This document shows positions 2,917 through 64,000 of a DNA stretch of 64,000 nt, piece after piece. Source of the DNA: a virus. A program made the position numbers and the translations under genes. The notes beneath the pieces were generated by a model that saw only the letters and a list, made by a program, of their open reading frames with translations, was not told the origin of the DNA and did no database searches. Every line of letters begins with the position of its first letter. The first letter of the stretch is position 1. Location: IMG/VR virus record IMGVR_UViG_3300014202_000564. One strand, 5' to 3'.

Positions 2917-5463
2917 ATGAAATTTTATACGCATGTTGCCTGCAGGGGCAACTACATTTATTATCGTGGTGTTGATAACGGTCGGCGAGTACGCTTGAAG
3001 AAAGAATACTCACCTACTCTTTTTGTCCCTTCCCATTCTCCCCTCTCCACTACTTGGAAAGATCTTCATGGCAATGCGGTGGATACCCTCAAATTTTCCT
3101 CGATTTATGAAGCGCGGGAATATCTAACAAAATACAAAGATGTCGATGGGTTCACTATCTACGGAAATACGAAATTCGAATACACTTTCATTTCTGACCA
3201 ACATCCAGAAGATACTATTGATTGGAACATTTCTGATGTTGTGGTTGCGTATATTGACATCGAAGTCGGCACCGAGCATGGTATGCCGAATATTGAGAAA
3301 TGTGAAAACCCAATTACCGCTATCACAGTGAAGCTGTCCAATCGTTCTTACTATGATGTGTTTGGTTGTGGGTCTTATAAAGAACATCGCGGGGACATCA
3401 AATATCATCGCTGCAGAGATGAACATGATTTGATTGAGCAGTTTTTGGAATTTTGGAAAGAGGAATACCCTGATGTGATTACTGGGTGGAATGTAAAGAC
3501 CTTCGATATTCCTTATATTGTGGGTCGTATTTGTGCTCTACCTCTTTTTGGTGAGGAGAAAGCTAAATGGTTATCTCCTTGGGGTAAGATTACCCTCAAC
3601 ACTGAACATTTCTATGGTAAAGAACAACGAGTGTTTGACATTCTGGGTATATCGACACTAGACTATTTACAGCTCTTTAGAAAGTATTCCCCCAAGAGTA
3701 ACCAAGAATCCTACAAGCTTGATCATATCGCTCATGTGGAGCTGAAAGAGAGAAAGCTGGACTATTCTGATTATGACAACCTTCATGATTTGTACAGGAG
3801 TAACTACCAGCGGTTTATTGAGTACAATATTCATGACGTTGAATTGGTGGAAAAGTTAAATGTGAAGGGTCGGTTGATCGACATGGCACTTACCCTCGCA
3901 TATGATAACAAGACCAATTATGAAGACATGTTTAGTCAGGTTCGCATGTGGGATACAATTTGCTACAACCATCTGCGAAAGAAGAATATCGTTATCCCAC
4001 CAAAAAAACAAAATCATAAGACTAAAGCATACGAGGGGGCTTATGTAAAGGACCCTCAAATGGGGTTGCATCGGTTAGTTGGTTCATTTGACTTAGATAG
4101 TCTTTATCCACATTTAATGATGCAGTATAATCTTTCACCTGAAACATTAATCGAACCGAAAGATTACACTGAACCGATGAAGGAACTTTTGAGACTGAAT
4201 ATCACAGTTGATTCCTTTTTAGATCAAAAGTTAGATTTGTCGGTGTTGGAAGGGTGCACCATCACACCAAATGGGCAGTTGTTTAGAACTGATAAGCAGG
4301 GGTTTCTTGCTGAGATTATGGAAACGATGTATAATGCCCGCGTCATCTATAAGAAAAAGCAAATAGAGGCTCAAAAAGAAAAAGAAAATTGCACAGATCC
4401 TACTCGAAAGAAAGAGTTGGAGAATCTTATTTCTAGGTATATGAACCTTCAGCTTGCCAAGAAGGTCAATCTTGTTTCCGCATACGGTGCAATGGGTAAT
4501 GAATATTTTAGATTCTTTGATGTGCGAATTGCCGAAGCAGTCACCCTTGCTGGTCAATTGAGTATTCGTTGGATAGAGAAAAAACTCAATGAGTTTATGA
4601 ATAAGATGTTAAAGACGAATAAAGATTATGTTCTAGCATCAGACACCGATTCCATCTATTTGAGCTTAGAAGGTCTAGCTCGTATGGTGTTTGGGGACAA
4701 TCTTCCAAGTACACCAGAGTTGATTGATTGGATGGACAAAGCCTGCCAGAAAATTAACCTATTCATAGAAAAGTCATACAAAGAACTTGCTGTGTATGTT
4801 CGAGCCTATAAGCAGAAGATGAGGATGAAGAGGGAGTGTCTTGCTGACACGGCAATATGGACTGCCAAGAAGAGATACATTCTGAATGTCTGGGATCAAG
4901 AAGGAGTTCGTTATAAAGAACCAGATTTAAAAATTAAGGGGTTGGAAGCTGTAAAGTCATCTACTCCTTCCGCATGCAGAGATAAAATTAAAGAAGCACT
5001 TAAGATTATTATGACGGGGACAGAAGAGAATGTTATAGACTTCATCTATCAGTTCAGAAAGGAGTTTAACACTCTACCACTATCTGAGATTGGGTTTCCC
5101 AGAACTGTCAATAAGTTAGAAGAATATACAGACATGAAGGATATATACATCAAAGGGTCGCCCATGCATGTGAAAGCTGCTTTGGTCTATAATAACTTCA
5201 TTAAAGAAAAAAACCTCGATGGGACATATGAGTTGATCAAGAGTGGCGAGAAGATCAAATTCATTTCCCTCAAGAGTCCAAATCCTCTTGGTGTTCCTGT
5301 TATCGCATTTCTTTCTCGTATTCCAAAGGAATTGAATTTAGAGTCTATGGTGGATTATCGATACCAATTTGAAAAGAGTTTTATTGAACCATTGCGAATT
5401 GTCCTAGATAAGATAAATTGGCACACAGAGAAAACCAGTACATTAGAGGGGTTCTTTAAGTGA
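2917..5463 (+). CDS. gp43: family B DNA polymerase (T4 gp43-like)
   Basis: ExoI YIDIEVG, ExoII YNIHDVELV, motif A DLDSLYPHLMMQYN, motif B KKVNLVSAYGAMG, motif C LASDTDSIY; start moved to ATG 2917 (MKFYTHV) because track start 2830 overlaps the upstream ORF. Confidence 0.93.
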   Translation: MKFYTHVACRGNYIYYRGVDNGRRVRLKKEYSPTLFVPSHSPLSTTWKDLHGNAVDTLKFSSIYEAREYLTKYKDVDGFTIYGNTKFEYTFISDQHPEDTIDWNISDVVVAYIDIEVGTEHGMPNIEKCENPITAITVKLSNRSYYDVFGCGSYKEHRGDIKYHRCRDEHDLIEQFLEFWKEEYPDVITGWNVKTFDIPYIVGRICALPLFGEEKAKWLSPWGKITLNTEHFYGKEQRVFDILGISTLDYLQLFRKYSPKSNQESYKLDHIAHVELKERKLDYSDYDNLHDLYRSNYQRFIEYNIHDVELVEKLNVKGRLIDMALTLAYDNKTNYEDMFSQVRMWDTICYNHLRKKNIVIPPKKQNHKTKAYEGAYVKDPQMGLHRLVGSFDLDSLYPHLMMQYNLSPETLIEPKDYTEPMKELLRLNITVDSFLDQKLDLSVLEGCTITPNGQLFRTDKQGFLAEIMETMYNARVIYKKKQIEAQKEKENCTDPTRKKELENLISRYMNLQLAKKVNLVSAYGAMGNEYFRFFDVRIAEAVTLAGQLSIRWIEKKLNEFMNKMLKTNKDYVLASDTDSIYLSLEGLARMVFGDNLPSTPELIDWMDKACQKINLFIEKSYKELAVYVRAYKQKMRMKRECLADTAIWTAKKRYILNVWDQEGVRYKEPDLKIKGLEAVKSSTPSACRDKIKEALKIIMTGTEENVIDFIYQFRKEFNTLPLSEIGFPRTVNKLEEYTDMKDIYIKGSPMHVKAALVYNNFIKEKNLDGTYELIKSGEKIKFISLKSPNPLGVPVIAFLSRIPKELNLESMVDYRYQFEKSFIEPLRIVLDKINWHTEKTSTLEGFFK

Positions 5464-38599: not shown

Positions 38600-38663
38600 G
38601 GTTGCCTCCTTGTTTTCTCCCCTGTCCATGATCTAAGCATACCATATTGGCAGATAGTGTCAA
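38600..38663 (-). promoter_or_regulatory. early-promoter cassette, minus strand
   Basis: read on minus: TTGACA (38663-38658), N16, TGgTATGCT (-10 at 38641-38636), TAGATC, ATG 38629, AAGGAGG. Confidence 0.6.
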
Positions 38664-38683
38664 GTCAACCAAATATTAAAAAT

Positions 38684-38743
38684 TTGACATTTTACGGAGT
38701 TATGGTAATCTGGTAACATGGGGAGTGTATCTAAAAGGATACA
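38684..38743 (+). promoter_or_regulatory. promoter plus cassette hairpin, no ORF downstream
   Basis: TTGACA 38684-38689, N16, TGgTAATCT (-10 at 38706-38711); hairpin TGTATC-TAAAAG-GATACA 38726-38743. Confidence 0.5.
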
Positions 38744-38800
38744 ATGAGTATACTTCTCCACAATACCAGATTACCAAATATATGGAAGCCTGTCAACTGT

Positions 38801-38814
38801 GTTCATTTTTGTAC
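38801..38814 (+). repeat. isolated copy of the iteron GTTCATTTTTGTAC
   Basis: exact 14-mer identical to the units at 36358 and 36474. Confidence 0.6.
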
Positions 38815-39013
38815 ACTGAGAGAACATTAAAAATAATTAATATTGGCTTCTGTGAGGCTTTGTGAGCATGGAACTTGCAAGCCTATGATTTTTGCAATTG
38901 CAAGAGTCGATGGTGTCATTTATACCACTCTATACACACACCCGCCCCTAGGGGGTTTCACCCTCAAAAATCAATTATAGTTTATCATAATAAAAAATCT
39001 TGTCAAGGGGGTC

Positions 39014-39093
39014 TTGACATCACATGCCAGTATGGTATTCTTGGATCATGATGATGACGCAAAAAGTAGATGATCTGAACTAGGAGGCACACA
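39014..39093 (+). promoter_or_regulatory. early-promoter cassette
   Basis: TTGACA 39014, N16, TGgTATTCT (-10 at 39036-39041), ATCATGATGA box with ATG 39048 (+7), 11-codon mini-ORF to 39083, AGGAGG. Confidence 0.65.
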
Positions 39094-39976: not shown

Positions 39977-40070
39977 TGTATCCTTTTAGATACACCAGAA
40001 AACCTGACACTTGACTATTCTGGCACCTATGGTATTCTTGGATCATGATGATCAAGACACCAAAGGAGAC
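39976..40070 (+). promoter_or_regulatory. hairpin + early-promoter cassette
   Basis: GTGTATC-CTTTTA-GATACAC 39976-39995; TTGACT 40011, N16, TGgTATTCT (-10 at 40033-40038); ATG 40045 (+7); mini-ORF stop overlaps ATG 40071. Confidence 0.65.
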
Positions 40071-43397: not shown

Positions 43398-43498
43398 TGT
43401 ATCCTTTTAGATACACCCGAAAATTTGATACTTGACTTTCCTGGCACCTATGGTATTCTTAGATCATGATGATGAACAAGAAAACCAAGGGGGAAACG
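43398..43498 (+). promoter_or_regulatory. hairpin + early-promoter cassette
   Basis: TGTATC-CTTTTA-GATACA 43398-43415; TTGACT 43432, N16, TGgTATTCT (-10 at 43454-43459); ATG 43466 (+7, in frame); AACAAGAAAACCAAGGGGGA. Confidence 0.7.
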
Positions 43499-47270: not shown

Positions 47271-47348
47271 ATACACCCCCCTTGACACTATCCGTTGATA
47301 TGGTATTCTTAGATCATGATGATGAACAAGAAAACCAAGGGGGAGAAC
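47257..47348 (+). promoter_or_regulatory. hairpin + early-promoter cassette
   Basis: GTGTATC-CTTTTA-GATACAC 47257-47276 (contains stop 47268-47270); TTGACA 47282, N16, TGgTATTCT (-10 at 47304-47309); ATG 47316 (+7, in frame). Confidence 0.7.
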
Positions 47349-49901: not shown

Positions 49902-49938
49902 CGCTTGACAGACCGGTGGGATGTGGTAGACTTAAATC
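49869..49938 (+). promoter_or_regulatory. hairpin + early-promoter cassette
   Basis: TGTATC-CAAAAA-GATACA 49869-49886 (inside the upstream ORF 3' end); TTGACA 49905, N16, TGgTAGACT (-10 at 49927-49932). Confidence 0.65.
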
Positions 49939-59305: not shown

Positions 59306-59498
59306 GGAAATATTGGATGCGGTAGAGAAGTTTGTCTGTGAGTGTGAATTTGAAGCGACTCATGAAGCAGTTGAAGCTGGGTTTGGTATTGTGGGATGGG
59401 AGATCATGATTGTATTCCACCCCCTCTATGAACAATATGTCCTTTCGAAAGAATTTCTCACTCATTATGCTAACAAAGTTTCCTTGGTGTCCCAATGA
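59298..59498 (+). CDS. hypothetical acidic protein
   Basis: ATG 59298 within track ORF 59085-59498; avoids a 220-nt overlap. Confidence 0.45.
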   Translation: MNEEILDAVEKFVCECEFEATHEAVEAGFGIVGWEIMIVFHPLYEQYVLSKEFLTHYANKVSLVSQ

Positions 59499-60070
59499 AC
59501 GATACCTATAAGTCCATGTTAATAGATCTGTTTTATAAAACTGATTCATACAAAGAAGACCACATTCATCCTTTTCTGTTGTCTTCTGGTGAGGAGAGCC
59601 CATATTACGTTGACTGCAGGAGGCTACTATCATACCCATATGCAAGAAAATTGGTTGGGGAAATGGGGGCATGGCTTCTGAGGGACCTTTCGGTTGATTG
59701 TGTTGGTGGGTTAGAGTCTGGGGCGATATCGGTTGCACAATCCATTTCCGATCAAACCAACACCCGTTTGTTCTATGTTAGAAAAAATCAACGGACACAT
59801 GGTGCAAAGGGAATAATCGGGGCGATTGAGGGGGCGGTACGTGCCCAGGATCGAGCGGTGATTGTCGATGATGTGTTCACAACGGGGGAGTCGGTAATTA
59901 AAGCTGCTACTGCAGTGCGGGAAGCGGGGTTACTGGTGAGCAATGCGTTGGTTATTGTGAATAGATCTGAAGATTTTATAGCAGCACAGACCCTCTTACA
60001 GAAACATGGGATTAGGACCCATAGCATTTTAAAAATGAGAGACATTTCGGAGTTTAAAAGTTTAAAATGA
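59495..60070 (+). CDS. pyrE: type I phosphoribosyltransferase, orotate PRTase-like
   Basis: FLLSSGEESPYYVDCR (like FxLxSGxxSPYYxD) and PRPP loop RAVIVDDVFTTGESV. Confidence 0.6.
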   Translation: MNDTYKSMLIDLFYKTDSYKEDHIHPFLLSSGEESPYYVDCRRLLSYPYARKLVGEMGAWLLRDLSVDCVGGLESGAISVAQSISDQTNTRLFYVRKNQRTHGAKGIIGAIEGAVRAQDRAVIVDDVFTTGESVIKAATAVREAGLLVSNALVIVNRSEDFIAAQTLLQKHGIRTHSILKMRDISEFKSLK

Positions 60071-60405
60071 AGCAGCCGAAACATCTATATGTTATCACAA
60101 GAAAGGATCTTTCCCCTGGGTACCAAGGAGTCCAGGGCATGCATGCATTGGTTGAGTTCTCTGCAAAATTTCCTGAGTTATATCTTAAGTGGTATAAGAC
60201 TTCCAACTACCTCTGTTTCCTTTCTGTGTGGGACGAAAAGGAGCTGAAAGCTCTTGCAAGAAAAGCAATGAAGTTGGGGGTTATGGTGTCCACGTTTCAT
60301 GAACCGGATGTCAATTTTGAAATGACTGCAATTGTGTTGGAAGTTGGCTCGAAGTCTATGAAAATAACCAAGAAACTAACATTAGCACTGAAGGAGTGGC
60401 CATAA
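60067..60405 (+). CDS. peptidyl-tRNA hydrolase 2 (Pth2)-fold protein
   Basis: 112 aa; LYVITRKDLSPGYQGVQGMHA and KELKALARKAMKLGVMVSTFHEPD are collinear with archaeal/eukaryotic Pth2 (VVRNDLKMGKGKxAAQxxHA ...). Confidence 0.6.
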   Translation: MKQPKHLYVITRKDLSPGYQGVQGMHALVEFSAKFPELYLKWYKTSNYLCFLSVWDEKELKALARKAMKLGVMVSTFHEPDVNFEMTAIVLEVGSKSMKITKKLTLALKEWP

Positions 60406-60947
60406 TGAGTACGAAGATTTACAATGGATTCCAGACTTCATTTGGTGATCTTGAAACGTTTTTGGATCTTGTTCATACGTTTCGTGATGGGTATTGGAAG
60501 AAGGGAGCAATAGAGCTGAGGGAGAAGTTTGTCGCCGCAGCTTTTGCTGGGTTTCCTGTTCAGGATGCAGAGGCAAAGAGGAAAGCGTATAGCCTTTGGT
60601 GGGATCTTTCTAGTAAAGCGCGAACCTCGACCACCAGGCAACCAGCATTAGACACAGATTTTAAAGTAACCATTTTTCCTGATTCGGGTCGGTTTATTGG
60701 TATCGCATATACAGAGCATGATAAGTGGTTTGAAGCATGGTTAAAGTTGCCAGGAATTCGAGAGTATGGATATTGGAATAACGTTGATCCTCCAGACCAT
60801 GTAACTGACGAGGAGTGGGAAGCTCGAAGGGAAGTATGGGACCGCGTTTTGCCTGGATGTGGTATTCCAGCTATGGAGGGATTTTCCATCGATGTGAGTG
60901 ATACTTTTGGTGCACCCATTGCAACCCTTGAGGAGATGGGGTTATGA
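60405..60947 (+). CDS. hypothetical protein
   Basis: ATG 60405 (TAATG overlap; track GTG 60396). Confidence 0.6.
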   Translation: MSTKIYNGFQTSFGDLETFLDLVHTFRDGYWKKGAIELREKFVAAAFAGFPVQDAEAKRKAYSLWWDLSSKARTSTTRQPALDTDFKVTIFPDSGRFIGIAYTEHDKWFEAWLKLPGIREYGYWNNVDPPDHVTDEEWEARREVWDRVLPGCGIPAMEGFSIDVSDTFGAPIATLEEMGL

Positions 60948-61289: not shown

Positions 61290-61598
61290 ATGACAACATC
61301 ACAAGAGCTGCAAGATCTAAAAGAAGAGACTATCCTTTCAACACTCAAAAAGTTAAAAGAAGAGAATAAGGCTCTGAAAGACGAGATTGAGTATTATAAG
61401 AAAATGAAGCAGGGTATTGTGATGTTCTTGTCTGGTAGACAGATTTGTGCATCTACATTCATTGATGATGAAACAATTACATACGGATATGGTGATCTTG
61501 ACAGGATCGGGTGTTGGGAATATTCTGTCCCCTCTATCATAGTGAAGTACGTTCAAGAATTGCGAGAGAAAATTAAATTACTCGAAAATAAGAGTTGA
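61290..61598 (+). CDS. hypothetical coiled-coil protein
   Basis: ATG 61290 follows GGGGAG (track 61182). Confidence 0.5.
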   Translation: MTTSQELQDLKEETILSTLKKLKEENKALKDEIEYYKKMKQGIVMFLSGRQICASTFIDDETITYGYGDLDRIGCWEYSVPSIIVKYVQELREKIKLLENKS

Positions 61599-61623
61599 CG
61601 AGGGTAAGTGACTGTGGTAGTAT
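61595..61623 (+). promoter_or_regulatory. sigma70-type promoter of the ncRNA
   Basis: TTGACG 61595-61600 (overlaps the upstream stop), N17, TGgTAGTAT (-10 at 61618-61623). Confidence 0.55.
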
Positions 61624-61631
61624 GTTGAATT

Positions 61632-61918
61632 GTGGGGTGTGGCTGATAGACTCATTCTACAGGGTCAAGGCGTAGTACCTGAAAGGACCAGGGAAAGCAC
61701 AAGTAGAATGGTGGAGGTAAGGCTGAAGGATACCAGAAGATCCTAATCTGGTAGAGCGCAAGGCATTCGGTAGCTCCCTATACACCAGTAGACGAATGCT
61801 TGGGAGTAGACACTCTCCCCAGAACGCAGAGATCCGTAACCGGAACGGGTTGAGTTCTGTAGCCAAATAACCGAACACCAAACGAACGTTGGGGGGCCTG
61901 GAAATCCCCCCACCCCAC
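61632..61918 (+). ncRNA. candidate ~287-nt structured RNA of unknown class
   Basis: no ORF; own promoter; 5' GTGGGGT (61632-61638) pairs with 3' ACCCCAC (61912-61918); many internal helices; GC hairpin and T-run at the 3' end. Confidence 0.55.
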
Positions 61919-61925
61919 TTTTTAT
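61891..61925 (+). terminator. terminator-like GC hairpin and T-tract
   Basis: GGGGGG-CCTGGAAAT-CCCCCC then ACCCCAC then TTTTTATT; the T-run is 7 nt from the hairpin, so atypical. Confidence 0.45.
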
Positions 61926-61926
61926 T

Positions 61927-62142
61927 ATGGAGCCTATGATGGAAACATACTGCAACGAACTAGCACAGAGACATATAGCAAATGCGGAAAATCTTCTGAG
62001 AGAAGCATTTAAAAGCTTACACTATGCAAAAGAATACATTGCATTGATGAATAGAATTCGTACTACCGGCGAAGTAAAATGTGTGCTTGATTGTATCTCC
62101 CCACCACCCGATGCCATTGTTCTGGAGAAGCAGAATGTATAA
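61927..62142 (+). CDS. hypothetical protein
   Basis: 71-aa track ORF; ATG 61939 has better GGAG spacing. Confidence 0.5.
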   Translation: MEPMMETYCNELAQRHIANAENLLREAFKSLHYAKEYIALMNRIRTTGEVKCVLDCISPPPDAIVLEKQNV

Positions 62143-62503
62143 GATCCAACAAAACAAAAAGACACCCCTATTCAGCGTGACTATAAAAGATTGCGAGATC
62201 CAGACATTTCGTGCTGGTGGGAAGGGTGGGCAAAATCAAAATAAGGTTGAGTCTGGTGTGCGTATCATTCACCATCCATCCGGGTCTCGCGGAGAATCTA
62301 GGGAATTCAGAACCCAGTTAGAAAACAAAAAAGCAGCATTTGCGCGAATGGGGAAGACTGAGACATTTCAGAGATGGGCTCGTAGTATGGCAGCTAAACT
62401 TCGCGGTGAGAAGTCTTTGGAGGATCGAGTAGAAGAATCAATGATACCACAAAATTTACTTATCGAAGAGCAATCCGCTGATGGATGGAAGGTGACATCA
62501 TGA
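62135..62503 (+). CDS. GGQ-domain release-factor-like protein (ArfB/PrfH-like peptidyl-tRNA hydrolase)
   Basis: FRAGGKGGQNQNKVESGVRIIHHPSG...RTQLENKKAA matches the class I RF GGQ domain; 122 aa from ATG 62135 (track 62081). Confidence 0.75.
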   Translation: MYKIQQNKKTPLFSVTIKDCEIQTFRAGGKGGQNQNKVESGVRIIHHPSGSRGESREFRTQLENKKAAFARMGKTETFQRWARSMAAKLRGEKSLEDRVEESMIPQNLLIEEQSADGWKVTS

Positions 62504-63120
62504 ACACAGACGATCCGATTAGGGATGAAATTGATACAATGATTCTCCGCAAAATAGCTGAGACAGAATTTCAAACATTCAATAAAATTCCACGGCTTTC
62601 TCGTCGTTGTGTGGTTACTGAAAAGATTGATGGGACCAATGCTCAACTCCTTATCACAGAGGATGGTAAATTGTTTGCGGGCAGTCGCTCTCGATGGCTT
62701 GTCGAGAATGATGTGTTGAAATGTGATAATTTTGGGTTTGGTGCTTGGGCACTCCAACATAAGGATGAGTTGGTTACAGGTCTTGGGATAGGAAGACATT
62801 TCGGAGAGTGGTGGGGCGCAGGTATTCAGCGTAAGTATGGGTTGAAGGAAAAGAGGTTTTCTCTATTCAATACAGATCGTTGGAAGGAAGATAATAAACC
62901 TGCCTGTTGTCATGTGGTACCAGTATTGTACGATGGAATGTTCACAACCAACGAGATTAACGTAACCCTTGCTCATTTGGCATTTAATGGGAGCGTTGCT
63001 GCTCCTGGGTTCATGAAGCCAGAGGGTATCGTTATCTATCATGTTGCTGCAAATTCGTTCTTTAAGAAGACCATTGAGGGGGATGAAAGTCCAAAGGGAT
63101 TAGTTGACAATAATGGATAA
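62500..63120 (+). CDS. ATP-dependent RNA ligase, Rnl2-like adenylyltransferase domain
   Basis: motif I EKIDGTN, III HFGEWWG, IV PEGIVIYH, V FFKKT; ATG 62500 overlaps the RF-like stop (ATGA). Confidence 0.7.
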   Translation: MNTDDPIRDEIDTMILRKIAETEFQTFNKIPRLSRRCVVTEKIDGTNAQLLITEDGKLFAGSRSRWLVENDVLKCDNFGFGAWALQHKDELVTGLGIGRHFGEWWGAGIQRKYGLKEKRFSLFNTDRWKEDNKPACCHVVPVLYDGMFTTNEINVTLAHLAFNGSVAAPGFMKPEGIVIYHVAANSFFKKTIEGDESPKGLVDNNG

Positions 63121-63394
63121 GGGTGTTAGACTCAGGGCAGTGCTAGATGAGGATGATTGGTGGTTGGGATGGACCACTGATAGAGGTATCCCAACATGGG
63201 TGCCAATGCAGGTTCAAGAGTGGATCGTTACGAAGTGGAACTTGGTTGTATGTTGGTTCAAGGGGCATCGGATAGTAGGAGAGATCCGAGGAACACTTTG
63301 TAGTCACTGTATGCACTGTATGACTGAAACCCTAGGTACTGGTTGTCGATGGTGTGAACTTGATGATAAAGACCTGGAGGAATTAGATGATTAA
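63113..63394 (+). CDS. small Cys-rich protein
   Basis: ATG 63113 within track ORF 63104; CSHCMHC...GCRWC. Confidence 0.5.
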   Translation: MDKGVRLRAVLDEDDWWLGWTTDRGIPTWVPMQVQEWIVTKWNLVVCWFKGHRIVGEIRGTLCSHCMHCMTETLGTGCRWCELDDKDLEELDD

Positions 63395-64000
63395 GTCATT
63401 TGTGAAATATAAGAAAATCAAATTTCCTGCCGGCGAAATGCATGTTCAACTCCTTCTTGAGGACGATGTGACATATCCTGATAAGGGGAATGTTGAGTGG
63501 TTATTTGAATCCACTGAGGAGATCATGGAGATACTACTTTTGAGTAGTGCTCTAAAACAACATGGGTATAAAATAGATAAATTGATCATTCCCTATTTTC
63601 CATTTTCTCGCCAGGATCGTGTAGCCAATTATGGGGATTGTTTTTCGCTCAAGGTGATGTGTGGGTTAATTAATCAGTTGGGAGCAGAGGAAGTCGTAAC
63701 ACATGACCCCCATTCCGATGTTCTTCCTGCATTGTTAGATAATGTGTATGTCGTTCACCAATCGACAATTTTCTATCCTATGTTGAATTCATGGTTTTCC
63801 CATGATGATAATGTGATTCTCATTTCCCCTGATGCAGGGGCGCTTAAGAAAATCTATCGTCTCTCTAAGGAATCCTTTAAAGTTAAGGGGGTTGTGGAGT
63901 GCAGTAAGCTTCGAAATACACAAACCGGAGACATTACCGGAGTCAAGGTTAATGCGCCCGCACATGAATTAGACGGTAAAACCTGTGTGATGGTAGATGA
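63387..64000 (+). CDS. prs: ribose-phosphate pyrophosphokinase (Prs)-like protein, 3' end outside window
   Basis: KFPAGEMHVQL, IPYFPFSRQDR (like PYxxYxRQDR), ISPDAGALKK; open to the window end. Confidence 0.75.
   Translation, partial: MIKSFVKYKKIKFPAGEMHVQLLLEDDVTYPDKGNVEWLFESTEEIMEILLLSSALKQHGYKIDKLIIPYFPFSRQDRVANYGDCFSLKVMCGLINQLGAEEVVTHDPHSDVLPALLDNVYVVHQSTIFYPMLNSWFSHDDNVILISPDAGALKKIYRLSKESFKVKGVVECSKLRNTQTGDITGVKVNAPAHELDGKTCVMVD

Follow-up and report, generated by a model that had tools for sequence, protein, structure and literature searches.

A structured noncoding RNA gene beside a stand-alone GGQ gene in uncultivated T4-like phages

A 64,000-nucleotide stretch of viral DNA, IMG/VR record IMGVR_UViG_3300014202_000564 (the whole of it hereafter called the window), raises the question of what is encoded by some 330 nucleotides that lie upstream of genes for a stand-alone GGQ (RF-1 domain) protein and an RNA ligase. 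An initial annotation made from the sequence alone had noted that the interval lacks a plus-strand open reading frame (ORF) of note – the longest encodes 38 amino acids – and had proposed a structured RNA bounded by a promoter and a terminator, possibly a tRNA-like or tmRNA-like cofactor, a decoy for host nucleases or a new RNA class. We find that positions 61632–61918 almost certainly constitute a self-contained gene for a noncoding RNA of 287 nucleotides (nt), from a family that is not in Rfam. Our account as a whole – a new RNA gene, transcribed early, folded compactly and acting in trans – is the best explanation that we can offer, and we put it at roughly even odds (about 0.5). The window phage has a DNA polymerase that shares 49% identity with its counterparts in T4-like Synechococcus myoviruses, and we therefore regard the phage as an uncultivated T4-like phage.

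A noncoding RNA gene conserved among related phages

A blastn search of GenBank phages with the RNA returned no match. IMG/VR loci that encode relatives of the GGQ protein yielded one homologue (locus L003, 70% identity, same synteny), and a two-block DNA pattern run over metagenome contigs added L074, L075 and L080. GGQ protein searches with contig look-ups in Logan and ENA assemblies, together with covariance model R1, contributed L084, the L085–L094 group, L095–L097, L103 and the divergent L100–L102. The resulting alignment (A7) holds 14 distinct sequences, and all carriers are related T4-like phages represented by metagenomic contigs. Model R1 scores the window copy at 308.8 bits and finds this one copy in the 64-kb window.

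Covariation across these related phages, a check proposed with the initial annotation, supports the helices of the fold. A comparison of two sequences showed 21 of 78 predicted pairs changed on both sides, and among five homologues aligned with MAFFT 34 of 81 RNAalifold pairs were compensatory. In the 14-sequence alignment, which was fitted to the model and with which the independent MAFFT results agree, 97.3% of cells across 86 pairs are paired and 52 of these pairs change on both sides. Register-shifted controls gave 8–13 such pairs with about 40% of cells paired, and none of 500 column shuffles matched the observed values. The RNA also has a G+C content of 49–52%, compared with about 40% in its flanks, and by minimum free energy its plus strand folds at −98 kcal/mol (z = −2.5; minus strand, z = −1.2). 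Between phages it is 68–88% identical, compared with 39–57% amino acid identity for a neighbouring protein of 183 amino acids (aa).

Could the interval instead hold a small protein gene on either strand, or simply a promoter followed by chance hairpins? Minus-strand ORFs of 46–88 aa do span the RNA in several loci, but they occupy different frames in different phages, and the other genes in this part of the window are all on the plus strand, where the frames across the RNA are full of stop codons. The RNA alignment contains many indels of 1–2 nt which, with frames unconserved on both strands, lead us to conclude that there is no protein gene. Substitutions are moreover concentrated as compensatory pairs, and we regard the absence of an RNA gene as hardly credible.

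The promoter that the initial annotation had placed before G61632, TTGACG-N17-TGgTAGTAT, is found exactly there, with 17 nt between TTGACG and the −10 hexamer, and a promoter of the form (A)GTTGACA-N17-TAnnnT occupies the same position in 12 of 13 variants. The −10 element lies 8 nt from the first G of the RNA in the window and 7 nt from it in the 11 other promoter-bearing variants. Because an early sigma-70-type promoter is fixed at 7–8 nt before this G, transcription would start at or next to the first base of P1, the terminal helix of the RNA. Similarity between loci begins at the −35 hexamer and ends at the last base of P1. The looser motif TTGAC-N17-19-TANNNT occurs 35 times in the window compared with 8.7 expected (a fourfold enrichment), mostly ahead of small genes in the early region, and the promoter of the RNA is among these matches.

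About 25 copies of a tighter motif, TTGACA-N14/15-TG(G/A)TAnnCT, are spread over the plus strand between 32000 and 63200 of the window, mostly before small ORFs (for example 39014–39041, 40011–40038, 43432–43459, 47282–47309, 49905–49932 and 63104–63132). Divergent copies of an early-promoter-like motif occur on both strands at 38636–39041. By its sequence, the repeated motif looks like the phage early-promoter consensus with an extended −10.

At the 3′ end, the GGGGGG-N9-CCCCCC hairpin (61891–61896/61906–61911) and the TTTTT after it are present as the initial annotation described them, but the terminator that they were taken to form is not borne out. The T-run lies 7 nt from the hairpin and is lost in L003, L080 and L100, and a scan called no intrinsic terminator at this end of the RNA. 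Other members carry ACUUAUU, AAAAUUA or AAAAUAA in place of the T-run, and the next gene begins 8–40 nt past this A/U-rich flank. We infer that the flank is a processing or leaky-termination site.

Architecture of the fold

The ends of the RNA pair in P1, which had been seen as GTGGGGT/ACCCCAC (61632–61638/61912–61918); the pairing is present and covaries, and the helix is really 8 base pairs (bp) long (Table 1). Every alignment cell of P1 is paired, and at 5 of its 8 pairs both partners differ among family members, the window strands GUGGGGUG/CACCCCAC being replaced elsewhere by GUGAGGUG/CACCUCAC, GUGUGGGG/CCCCACAC or AGGGGUGG/CCACCCCU. P12 abuts P1 end-to-end, and a 2-nt linker separates P1 from P2. 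A long-range stem made of P4–P6, with 10 of 13 pairs changed on both sides, bears the four arms P7–P10, and in P7 the helix is kept while its sequence is almost free.

The alignment redrew several internal helices of the initial annotation. CCAGA/UCUGG is recovered as P7 and GGGAG/CUCCC as P9, both with covariation; the GGAU/AUCC pairing interleaved with the former and the first CUCCC assigned to the latter are not. CUGUAG had been paired with CUACAG; it pairs with covariation in P6 and P10, and becomes CUAUAA in L075. The proposed helix AACCG/CGGUU is absent from the covariation-supported fold.

Searching for runs of covarying columns outside the nested fold, we identified two loop–loop contacts, both made by the P8 loop strand CCAGUAGA (61785–61792). 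GUAGA (61788–61792) pairs with UCUAC (61656–61660) in the conserved P2a loop AUUCUACA (61654–61661), with compensatory changes at 3 of 5 pairs in two lineages (UCUGU/ACAGA in L084; CCUAC/GUAGG in L100). CCA (61785–61787) pairs with UGG (61899–61901) in the P12 loop, and the pairing becomes GCA/UGC in the L074/L075 group. Both contacts fall on one P8 loop, and the 5′ domain and the 3′ terminal hairpin are thus splinted together.

The J region (consensus GGGAAAGNACAAGUAGRA, about 19 bases) is kept even in the divergent L084 and L100; no complementary or antisense target for it was found in the window. Sequence is also conserved at AAUAACC and ACGAACGU. All 14 sequences keep AGUACC and GGGAAAG unchanged, P3 shows a compensatory U-A to C-G change, and from the known AGUA/GAA consensus we take AGUA-P3-GAAAG to be a candidate bulged-G module.

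Other candidate features were set aside. For a pseudoknot between the P2a loop and GUAGAA of the J region, only the P8 partner covaries, and the J region gives a wobble in L103 or a mismatch in L100. A resemblance to the sarcin–ricin loop (AGUAC...GGACC) was reduced to the generic AGUA/GAA module, as GGAC is the P3 loop by covariation. A D-arm-like UGGUAGAGCGC and words resembling the 3′ end of 16S rRNA occur in the window copy only.

In L003, L074, L075, L080 and L103, and not in the window copy, the palindrome UUGCAA occurs in the P10b loop and in some members in the P12 loop (A7 columns 229–236 and 288–296). Such loops could kiss within or between molecules, the latter giving dimers.

About 16 helices and two covarying long-range loop contacts within 287 nt make an architecture whose like has rarely been proven. 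RNAs so ornate have historically proved to be ribozymes, riboswitches or ribonucleoprotein cores. The RNA would also offer structure determination a target that is both compact and tractable.

Table 1. Features of the RNA locus and neighbouring genes (positions in the window)
Feature	Position	Strand	Basis or remark
PyrE-like phosphoribosyltransferase gene	59495–60070	+	Pfam/NCBIfam
PTH2-like protein gene	60067–60405	+	Pfam/NCBIfam
183-aa protein gene	60396–60947	+	No family match; between PTH2-like and GGQ genes
−35 hexamer TTGACG of the RNA's own predicted early promoter	61595–61600	+	Aligns with (A)GTTGACA in 11 other variants
Extended −10, TGg-TAGTAT	61615–61623	+	TATACT, TATAAT or TAGAAT at the same place in homologues
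287-nt structured noncoding RNA	61632–61918	+	Covariance model, 14 homologues, covariation
P1 5′ strand GUGGGGUG	61632–61639	+	Pairs with 61911–61918, 8 bp
P2/P2a hairpin, GCU..GGC enclosing GACUC/GGGUC	61642–61671	+	Compensatory changes in P2 and P2a
AGUA, P3 hairpin (CCUG/CAGG), GAAAG	61674–61697	+	Candidate bulged-G (loop-E/sarcin-ricin-type) module
J region GGGAAAGCACAAGUAGAAU, longest conserved single-stranded stretch	61691–61709	+	Nearly invariant in 14 sequences
5′ strands of long-range P4 (GGUG), P5 (GGU), P6 (GGCUG)	61710–61725	+	Pair with 61860–61879
P7 hairpin UACCAG/CUGGUA	61731–61753	+	8/9 pairs compensatory
P8 AGGCAUUCG/CGAAUGCUU with apical loop	61761–61801	+	5/9 pairs compensatory
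P9 hairpin GGGAG-UAGACACU-CUCCC	61802–61819	+	3/5 pairs compensatory; loop UAGNCANU conserved
P10/P10b arm, CAG-AAC...GUU-CUG enclosing AUCCG/CGGGU	61820–61859	+	10/13 pairs compensatory
3′ strands of P6, P5, P4 with conserved AAUAACC between	61860–61879	+	Covariation, alignment
Conserved AACGAACGUU, nearly invariant	61880–61890	+	3-bp mini-hairpin P11 doubtful, no supporting covariation
P12 GC-rich 3′ hairpin, 5–6 bp, 8–9-nt loop	61891–61911	+	Compensatory G-C to A-U changes
P1 3′ strand CACCCCAC, end of RNA	61911–61918	+	Similarity between loci stops here
U/A-rich 3′ flank UUUUUAUU	61919–61926	+	A/U-rich in all variants
71-aa gene, small-protein family A	61927–62142	+	Between RNA and GGQ gene
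Stand-alone GGQ (RF-1 domain) protein gene	62138–62503	+	Pfam RF-1, E = 3e-16
RNA ligase gene, nucleotidyltransferase domain only	62485–63120	+	Pfam RNA_ligase, E = 1e-11
Prs-like ORF	63393–64000 (runs off window end)		Directly after ligase

Comparison with known RNAs

The whole window contains no match to Rfam 15 at gathering thresholds and no tRNA or tmRNA gene by ARAGORN at default settings. The Rfam 15 families covered include RNase P, 6S, SRP, Y RNA, GOLLD, ROOL, HEARO, group I and II introns, riboswitches and T-box. Permissive scans (E ≤ 10) of three divergent members gave unrelated matches of at most 16 bits and no tmRNA match; the only family seen twice, CRISPR-DR36, scored 12–14 bits compared with a cut-off of 38 bits, which we regard as noise. 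With ARAGORN thresholds lowered to 60–80%, inconsistent permuted calls were all that appeared, in 3 of 5 sequences. Taken with the strong covariation, these results uphold the suggestion of a new RNA class.

Searches for further carriers point to a restricted range. In IMG/VR pattern scans with three independent conserved blocks, the L003 contig was the only true match, and the other pattern matches (L064, L065, L076, L078, L079, L081–83) were chance matches in coding DNA. A scan of 185,579 bacterial and archaeal genomes gave chance matches or none, and the covariance model found no further copies in 63 IMG/VR GGQ loci and other loci. The RNA was not described in any paper found in our literature search. 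A 2023 catalogue built from IMG/VR lists 10,006 candidate phage RNAs (PMC10690425); to judge from the RNA's single copy in IMG/VR, rather than from the catalogue's own entries, it was probably beyond the reach of that survey. As far as these sequence searches can tell, the family is categorically new and narrowly distributed among T4-like phages.

A molecule like tRNA or tmRNA would have CCA added, be aminoacylated and enter stalled ribosomes, and the topology of the ends invites the comparison. As in tmRNA (SsrA), a terminal helix formed by the two ends of the molecule directly adjoins a 3′ hairpin, a short linker (2 nt here) leads to the next helix, and a long helix in the place of the ‘anticodon arm’ runs to a large pseudoknotted body. 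The size compares with the 260–400 nt of tmRNA, ribosome-rescue and tRNA genes are part of the genomic company, the neighbouring proteins act on peptidyl-tRNA, and the phage of locus L057 has a true tmRNA near its GGQ gene.

The details tell against this reading. ARAGORN and the Rfam tmRNA and tRNA models fail, and all 14 sequences have G-C as the third P1 pair, so that the alanine identity pair G3·U70 is absent. None of 13 variants has CCA after P1; on the RNA-bearing contig L075, 20 of 21 tRNA genes encode CCA, with canonical GGTTCRANNCC T-arms. P1 (8 bp) and P12 (5–6 bp) stack to 13–14 bp, compared with 12 bp (7 + 5) in tRNA, and the P12 loop has 8–9 nt (NUUGGAAU, AUUGCAAC or CCUGGAAAU) without the consensus of the 7-nt TΨC loop. 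Three-frame translations of five members share no tag frame with a resume codon and stop, and the candidate tag region is a covarying helix. A tblastn search for an SmpB-like ORF with Escherichia coli SmpB returned only noise, a weak test that covered just the 64-kb window of the genome. The P12 and P2a loops make no mutual contact; by covariation both dock on the P8 apical loop, an arrangement analogous in logic to the tRNA elbow, geometry aside. We conclude that the RNA resembles tmRNA at most in the topology of its ends and is not a member, and the tRNA-like or tmRNA-like cofactor of the initial annotation is highly improbable.

Among phage RNAs, T4 RNAs C and D (species 1 and 2) invite comparison as small stable RNAs of a T4-type phage whose function is unassigned. 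They are processed from a polycistronic transcript, and the same processing can be supposed for the new RNA. Like it, rnaC and rnaD lie on the same strand beside a tRNA cluster with an RNA-ligase-annotated gene nearby. Unlike it, they measure 119–139 nt rather than 287 nt and lie within the tRNA array, at its end, not beside a GGQ gene. The unfiltered covariance model reached at most 6.5 bits over the T4 tRNA region, and not on rnaC or rnaD as a whole, which gives no sign of homology.

GOLLD and ROOL are reported by Weinberg and colleagues (2009 and 2017) to be large, multi-helix, pseudoknotted phage RNAs with no assigned role, often beside tRNA genes. They differ from the new RNA in size (500–800 nt) and in their hosts and phage groups, and their Rfam models fail on it; in the new RNA, a hint of oligomerization is limited to the UUGCAA loops of some members.

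Bacterial Y RNAs (YrlA/YrlB) carry a tRNA-mimicking module and are co-transcribed with an RNA ligase in the rsr-yrl-rtcBA repair operon, which is in keeping with an RNA that takes part in RNA repair as a scaffold or decoy. They differ in being about 100–130 nt long, in having a canonical T-arm and in needing Ro60/Rsr: no Rfam Y RNA match was found here, and none of 10 neighbouring proteins scanned has a TROVE (Ro60) domain. The phage ligase is moreover of the Rnl type, not RtcB, and the phage RNA is linked to the GGQ gene, not to the ligase.

Two further kinds of function received no support. Tandem Repeats Finder returned no rows for 61400–62200, where tandem direct repeats would have suggested the RNA antitoxin of a type III toxin–antitoxin system. 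E. coli genomes gave no blastn match to the RNA at E ≤ 10; there is therefore no evident mimicry of rRNA, tRNA or small RNA (sRNA).

The GGQ neighbourhood and a proposed role for the RNA

Wherever the RNA occurs, at most 450 nt separate it from the GGQ gene, which may lie on either side; in 12 of 13 variants the RNA precedes the GGQ operon and shares its strand. The gene upstream of the RNA encodes a 102-aa protein in most loci and other proteins in L080, L084, L095 and L103. Directly downstream lies a gene of small-protein family A (window, L084, L085), of small-protein family B (L003, L075, L095, L103), the GGQ gene itself (L074, L080) or a gene for a membrane protein, and the ribosome-binding site also differs among loci. 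The RNA is therefore not a gene-specific leader. In L095 the Pth2/p180/p102 block is gone from its usual upstream place and the RNA still stands before GGQ. In L100–L102 the order is inverted – the RNA begins 4 nt past the GGQ stop codon, without a promoter of its own, with no ligase within 3 kb and with a family A gene one gene further on. Read from gene order, the L100 rearrangement appears to be the best evidence for a specific link between RNA and GGQ gene, and it argues against a leader for one gene. The initial annotation had invoked the Pth2-like, GGQ and ligase genes together; a link to the GGQ gene stands, links to the other two do not, and the RNA is dispensable for the operon.

The 102-aa protein was rejected as a partner: it occurs without the RNA in L072 and L073, and is missing upstream of the RNA in L080, L095 and L100. 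L072 (4366–4491) and L073 (436–561) come from the same sample and both end exactly 125 nt after an 89-aa gene, with the last 130 nt identical; no RNA follows this gene in either, and the shared end is probably an assembly break between co-occurring strains.

GGQ homologues in other IMG/VR phages sit inside tRNA arrays, with a tRNA gene no more than 100 nt away, often on both sides, in at least 17 of 60 loci. An array of 21 tRNA genes starts 4.9 kb past the RNA in L075, beyond NAD-salvage genes, and tRNAs occur downstream in L099 too. On this tRNA context, we reason that the RNA holds the slot beside GGQ that stable-RNA genes hold elsewhere. As its gene neighbourhood indicates, the RNA is an accessory member of a phage ‘translation-maintenance’ island, which also holds the RNA ligase, a PTH2-like hydrolase, a NARP1-like gene pair and, in relatives, the 21-tRNA array.

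From these observations we tentatively propose, at a little under even odds, that the RNA acts in trans as a stable RNA of this translation-maintenance or anti-defence island. It would stand at the head of an early polycistronic transcript whose later part carries the GGQ, RNA ligase and NAD-salvage genes and, in relatives, the tRNA array. Release would take place in the A/U-rich sequence that follows P1, either through an endonucleolytic cut and trimming to P1 or through leaky termination as P1 closes; in L100 the RNA would be excised from downstream of the GGQ ORF. With the P8 splint locking the 5′ domain to the 3′ end, both termini would be buried, as would suit a compact, nuclease-resistant particle, while the approximately 19 single-stranded bases of the J region and the AGUA/GAA module would stay free for a partner. 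Most likely the RNA would bind a conserved component of translation or RNA repair as a scaffold, mimic or decoy, in a role accessory to the GGQ protein rather than as its obligatory cofactor. The decoy for host nucleases suggested in the initial annotation is a possible reading. Should its target be the ribosome, tRNA or a host defence nuclease, the RNA would give phage counter-defence and ribosome rescue a new RNA component.

Several observations count against this proposal. The ends of the RNA, its stability and its action in trans are all extrapolated from comparative data, and with no terminator the RNA could stay the 5′ part of an mRNA. Neither the E. coli blastn search nor the search of the window with the J region produced a partner protein, ligand or target RNA. 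Most of the additional homologues were retrieved through the GGQ gene, so that the adjacency is partly built in, and the carriers are all related. The GGQ–ligase operon occurs without the RNA in L067–69, L099, L001/L002 and about 60 IMG/VR loci; a direct RNA–GGQ partnership is therefore not required, and no residues discriminate the GGQ proteins of loci with the RNA from those of loci without it.

The principal competing explanation is that of a cis-acting operon leader, which would serve processive antitermination along an extended operon that is translated only in part, protect the start of the mRNA from decay or sense a ligand. An RNA that starts at the predicted transcription start, has no conserved terminator and, in 12 of 13 variants, precedes the GGQ operon on the same strand is what a leader would look like; its 5′ end is buried in a helix, the operon leads into the 21-tRNA array in L075, and the near-invariance of the 5′ domain would be consistent with contact to RNA polymerase or another conserved machine. 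HK022 put and the Bacillus EAR element are likewise promoter-proximal structured antitermination RNAs that head a long operon, whichever gene follows. They have, however, 70–120 nt and two or three helices, whereas the phage RNA is three to four times larger, far more elaborate and without sequence or structural match to them. In L100 the RNA is operon-internal, behind the GGQ ORF and before unrelated genes, and elsewhere the gene directly downstream and its ribosome-binding site vary. We observed no alternative pairing of the P1 3′ strand, no conserved terminator or alternative structure sequestering the ribosome-binding site and no conserved expression platform, and no Rfam riboswitch or leader model matches; relatives moreover run the same operon without the RNA. 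We consider a leader unlikely, if not negligibly so, and it would be an unusually elaborate one.

A more specific idea, which we hold doubtful, has the RNA serve either as the RNA subunit in a new ribonucleoprotein with the stand-alone GGQ peptidyl-tRNA hydrolase at its core or as a bait for a host defence nuclease that targets translation. As a subunit, it would supply the recognition of ribosome or substrate that the 120-aa GGQ protein lacks, and it might descend from a tRNA gene of the kind that flanks GGQ in other phages. If either version were true, the RNA would be a tag-less functional counterpart of tmRNA–SmpB, or the first large RNA-based anti-defence factor directed at translation. 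A related rescue-and-repair pair on the ribosome, PrfH–RtcB2, has been described (PMC9304027; PMC9223846). Like the phage operon it joins a GGQ-bearing release-factor homologue to an RNA ligase, and L001 and L002 pair the phage GGQ gene with RtcB itself, without the RNA. PrfH–RtcB2 differs in having no RNA component, and the phage protein keeps the GGQ domain only, scoring 46.5 bits with the PrfH model (cut-off 166.65).

Patchy presence among close relatives could also suggest a mobile or self-processing element, such as a degenerate group I intron, a ribozyme or cargo inserting beside GGQ. The window phage is nearer to the RNA-less L067–69 (65% identity in the 183-aa protein and 81% in PTH2) than to the RNA-bearing L003, L074, L075 and L080 (39–57% and 52–54%). 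The boundaries of the module are sharp, and homing-endonuclease genes are inserted nearby in L074 and L103. Against mobility, deletion explains the absence: L099, with a GGQ protein that most resembles the ones of L003 and L103, both RNA-bearing, retains at 1160–1215 a scar consisting of the −35 (TTGAC) and the last 13 nt, CCCTCCACCTCAC, around approximately 20 nt of filler. The RNA has its own promoter, interrupts no host gene, shows no exon continuity and matches no intron or ribozyme model. It is present once in the 64-kb window and has diverged in step with its phages. We judge a mobile origin very improbable. The natural loss variants L067 and L099, with the alignment and the covariance model, make the question of function directly testable.

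Homing-endonuclease-type ORFs were seen in the island at L074 2189–2665 (HNH-like, between GGQ and ligase), L103 5150–5530 (LAGLIDADG, between the Prs-like and NAMPT-like genes) and L099 4576–4686 (HNH, near tRNAs).

Among the loci L004–L063, tRNA genes stand 10–20 nt from both ends of the GGQ ORF in, for example, L019 (3909–4393), L026 (3911–4405) and L058 (3886–4453), an arrangement which suggests that the GGQ mRNA may be cut out of a tRNA precursor transcript. On the 215-kb viral contig of L057, the phage tmRNA (5416–5807; tag ADENSRLLNSANEIVSPMFAESVLATI*) is part of a tRNA array and follows the GGQ gene at a distance of about 1 kb. Other genes near GGQ encode tRNAs with a CUA (amber-reading) anticodon and tRNA-like molecules to which ARAGORN assigns a 2-nt ‘anticodon’ (L008 5290–5368, L015 6136–6213, L026 1291–1364 and relatives); such tRNAs, in phages that encode a fragment of a release factor as well, may be suppressors or simply odd.

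The RNA ligase gene comes after GGQ in most loci. In relatives a NAMPT-like gene follows the Prs-like ORF (L003 5259–7656, L075 4564–6857, L067 6805–9188). NARP1, an anti-defence pathway that reconstitutes NAD+, is encoded by the gene pair of Adps and Namat (bioRxiv 10.1101/2024.02.11.579819; PMC12774641), and by domain content the Prs-like and NAMPT-like genes would match this pair.

The 183-aa protein is a candidate new component of the rescue/repair operon. Its AlphaFold2 model is of fair quality (pLDDT 78.5, pTM 0.74) and has no fold match in the PDB at E ≤ 0.001; a homologue is encoded at 5001–5543 of L067.

The interval from the RNA to the GGQ gene repeatedly encodes proteins of 66–77 aa, which form two families. 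Family A, which includes the 71-aa protein of the window and has no Pfam or NCBIfam match, shares the consensus ...RHI..AE..L.EAF...YAKE...PPPD.I; its genes adjoin the RNA in L084 (2808–3008) and L085 (2626–2835), and one stays near it, a gene away, in the rearranged L100 (4031–4264). Family B genes were found at L003 3844–4050, L085 2832–3053 and L095 2832–3044.

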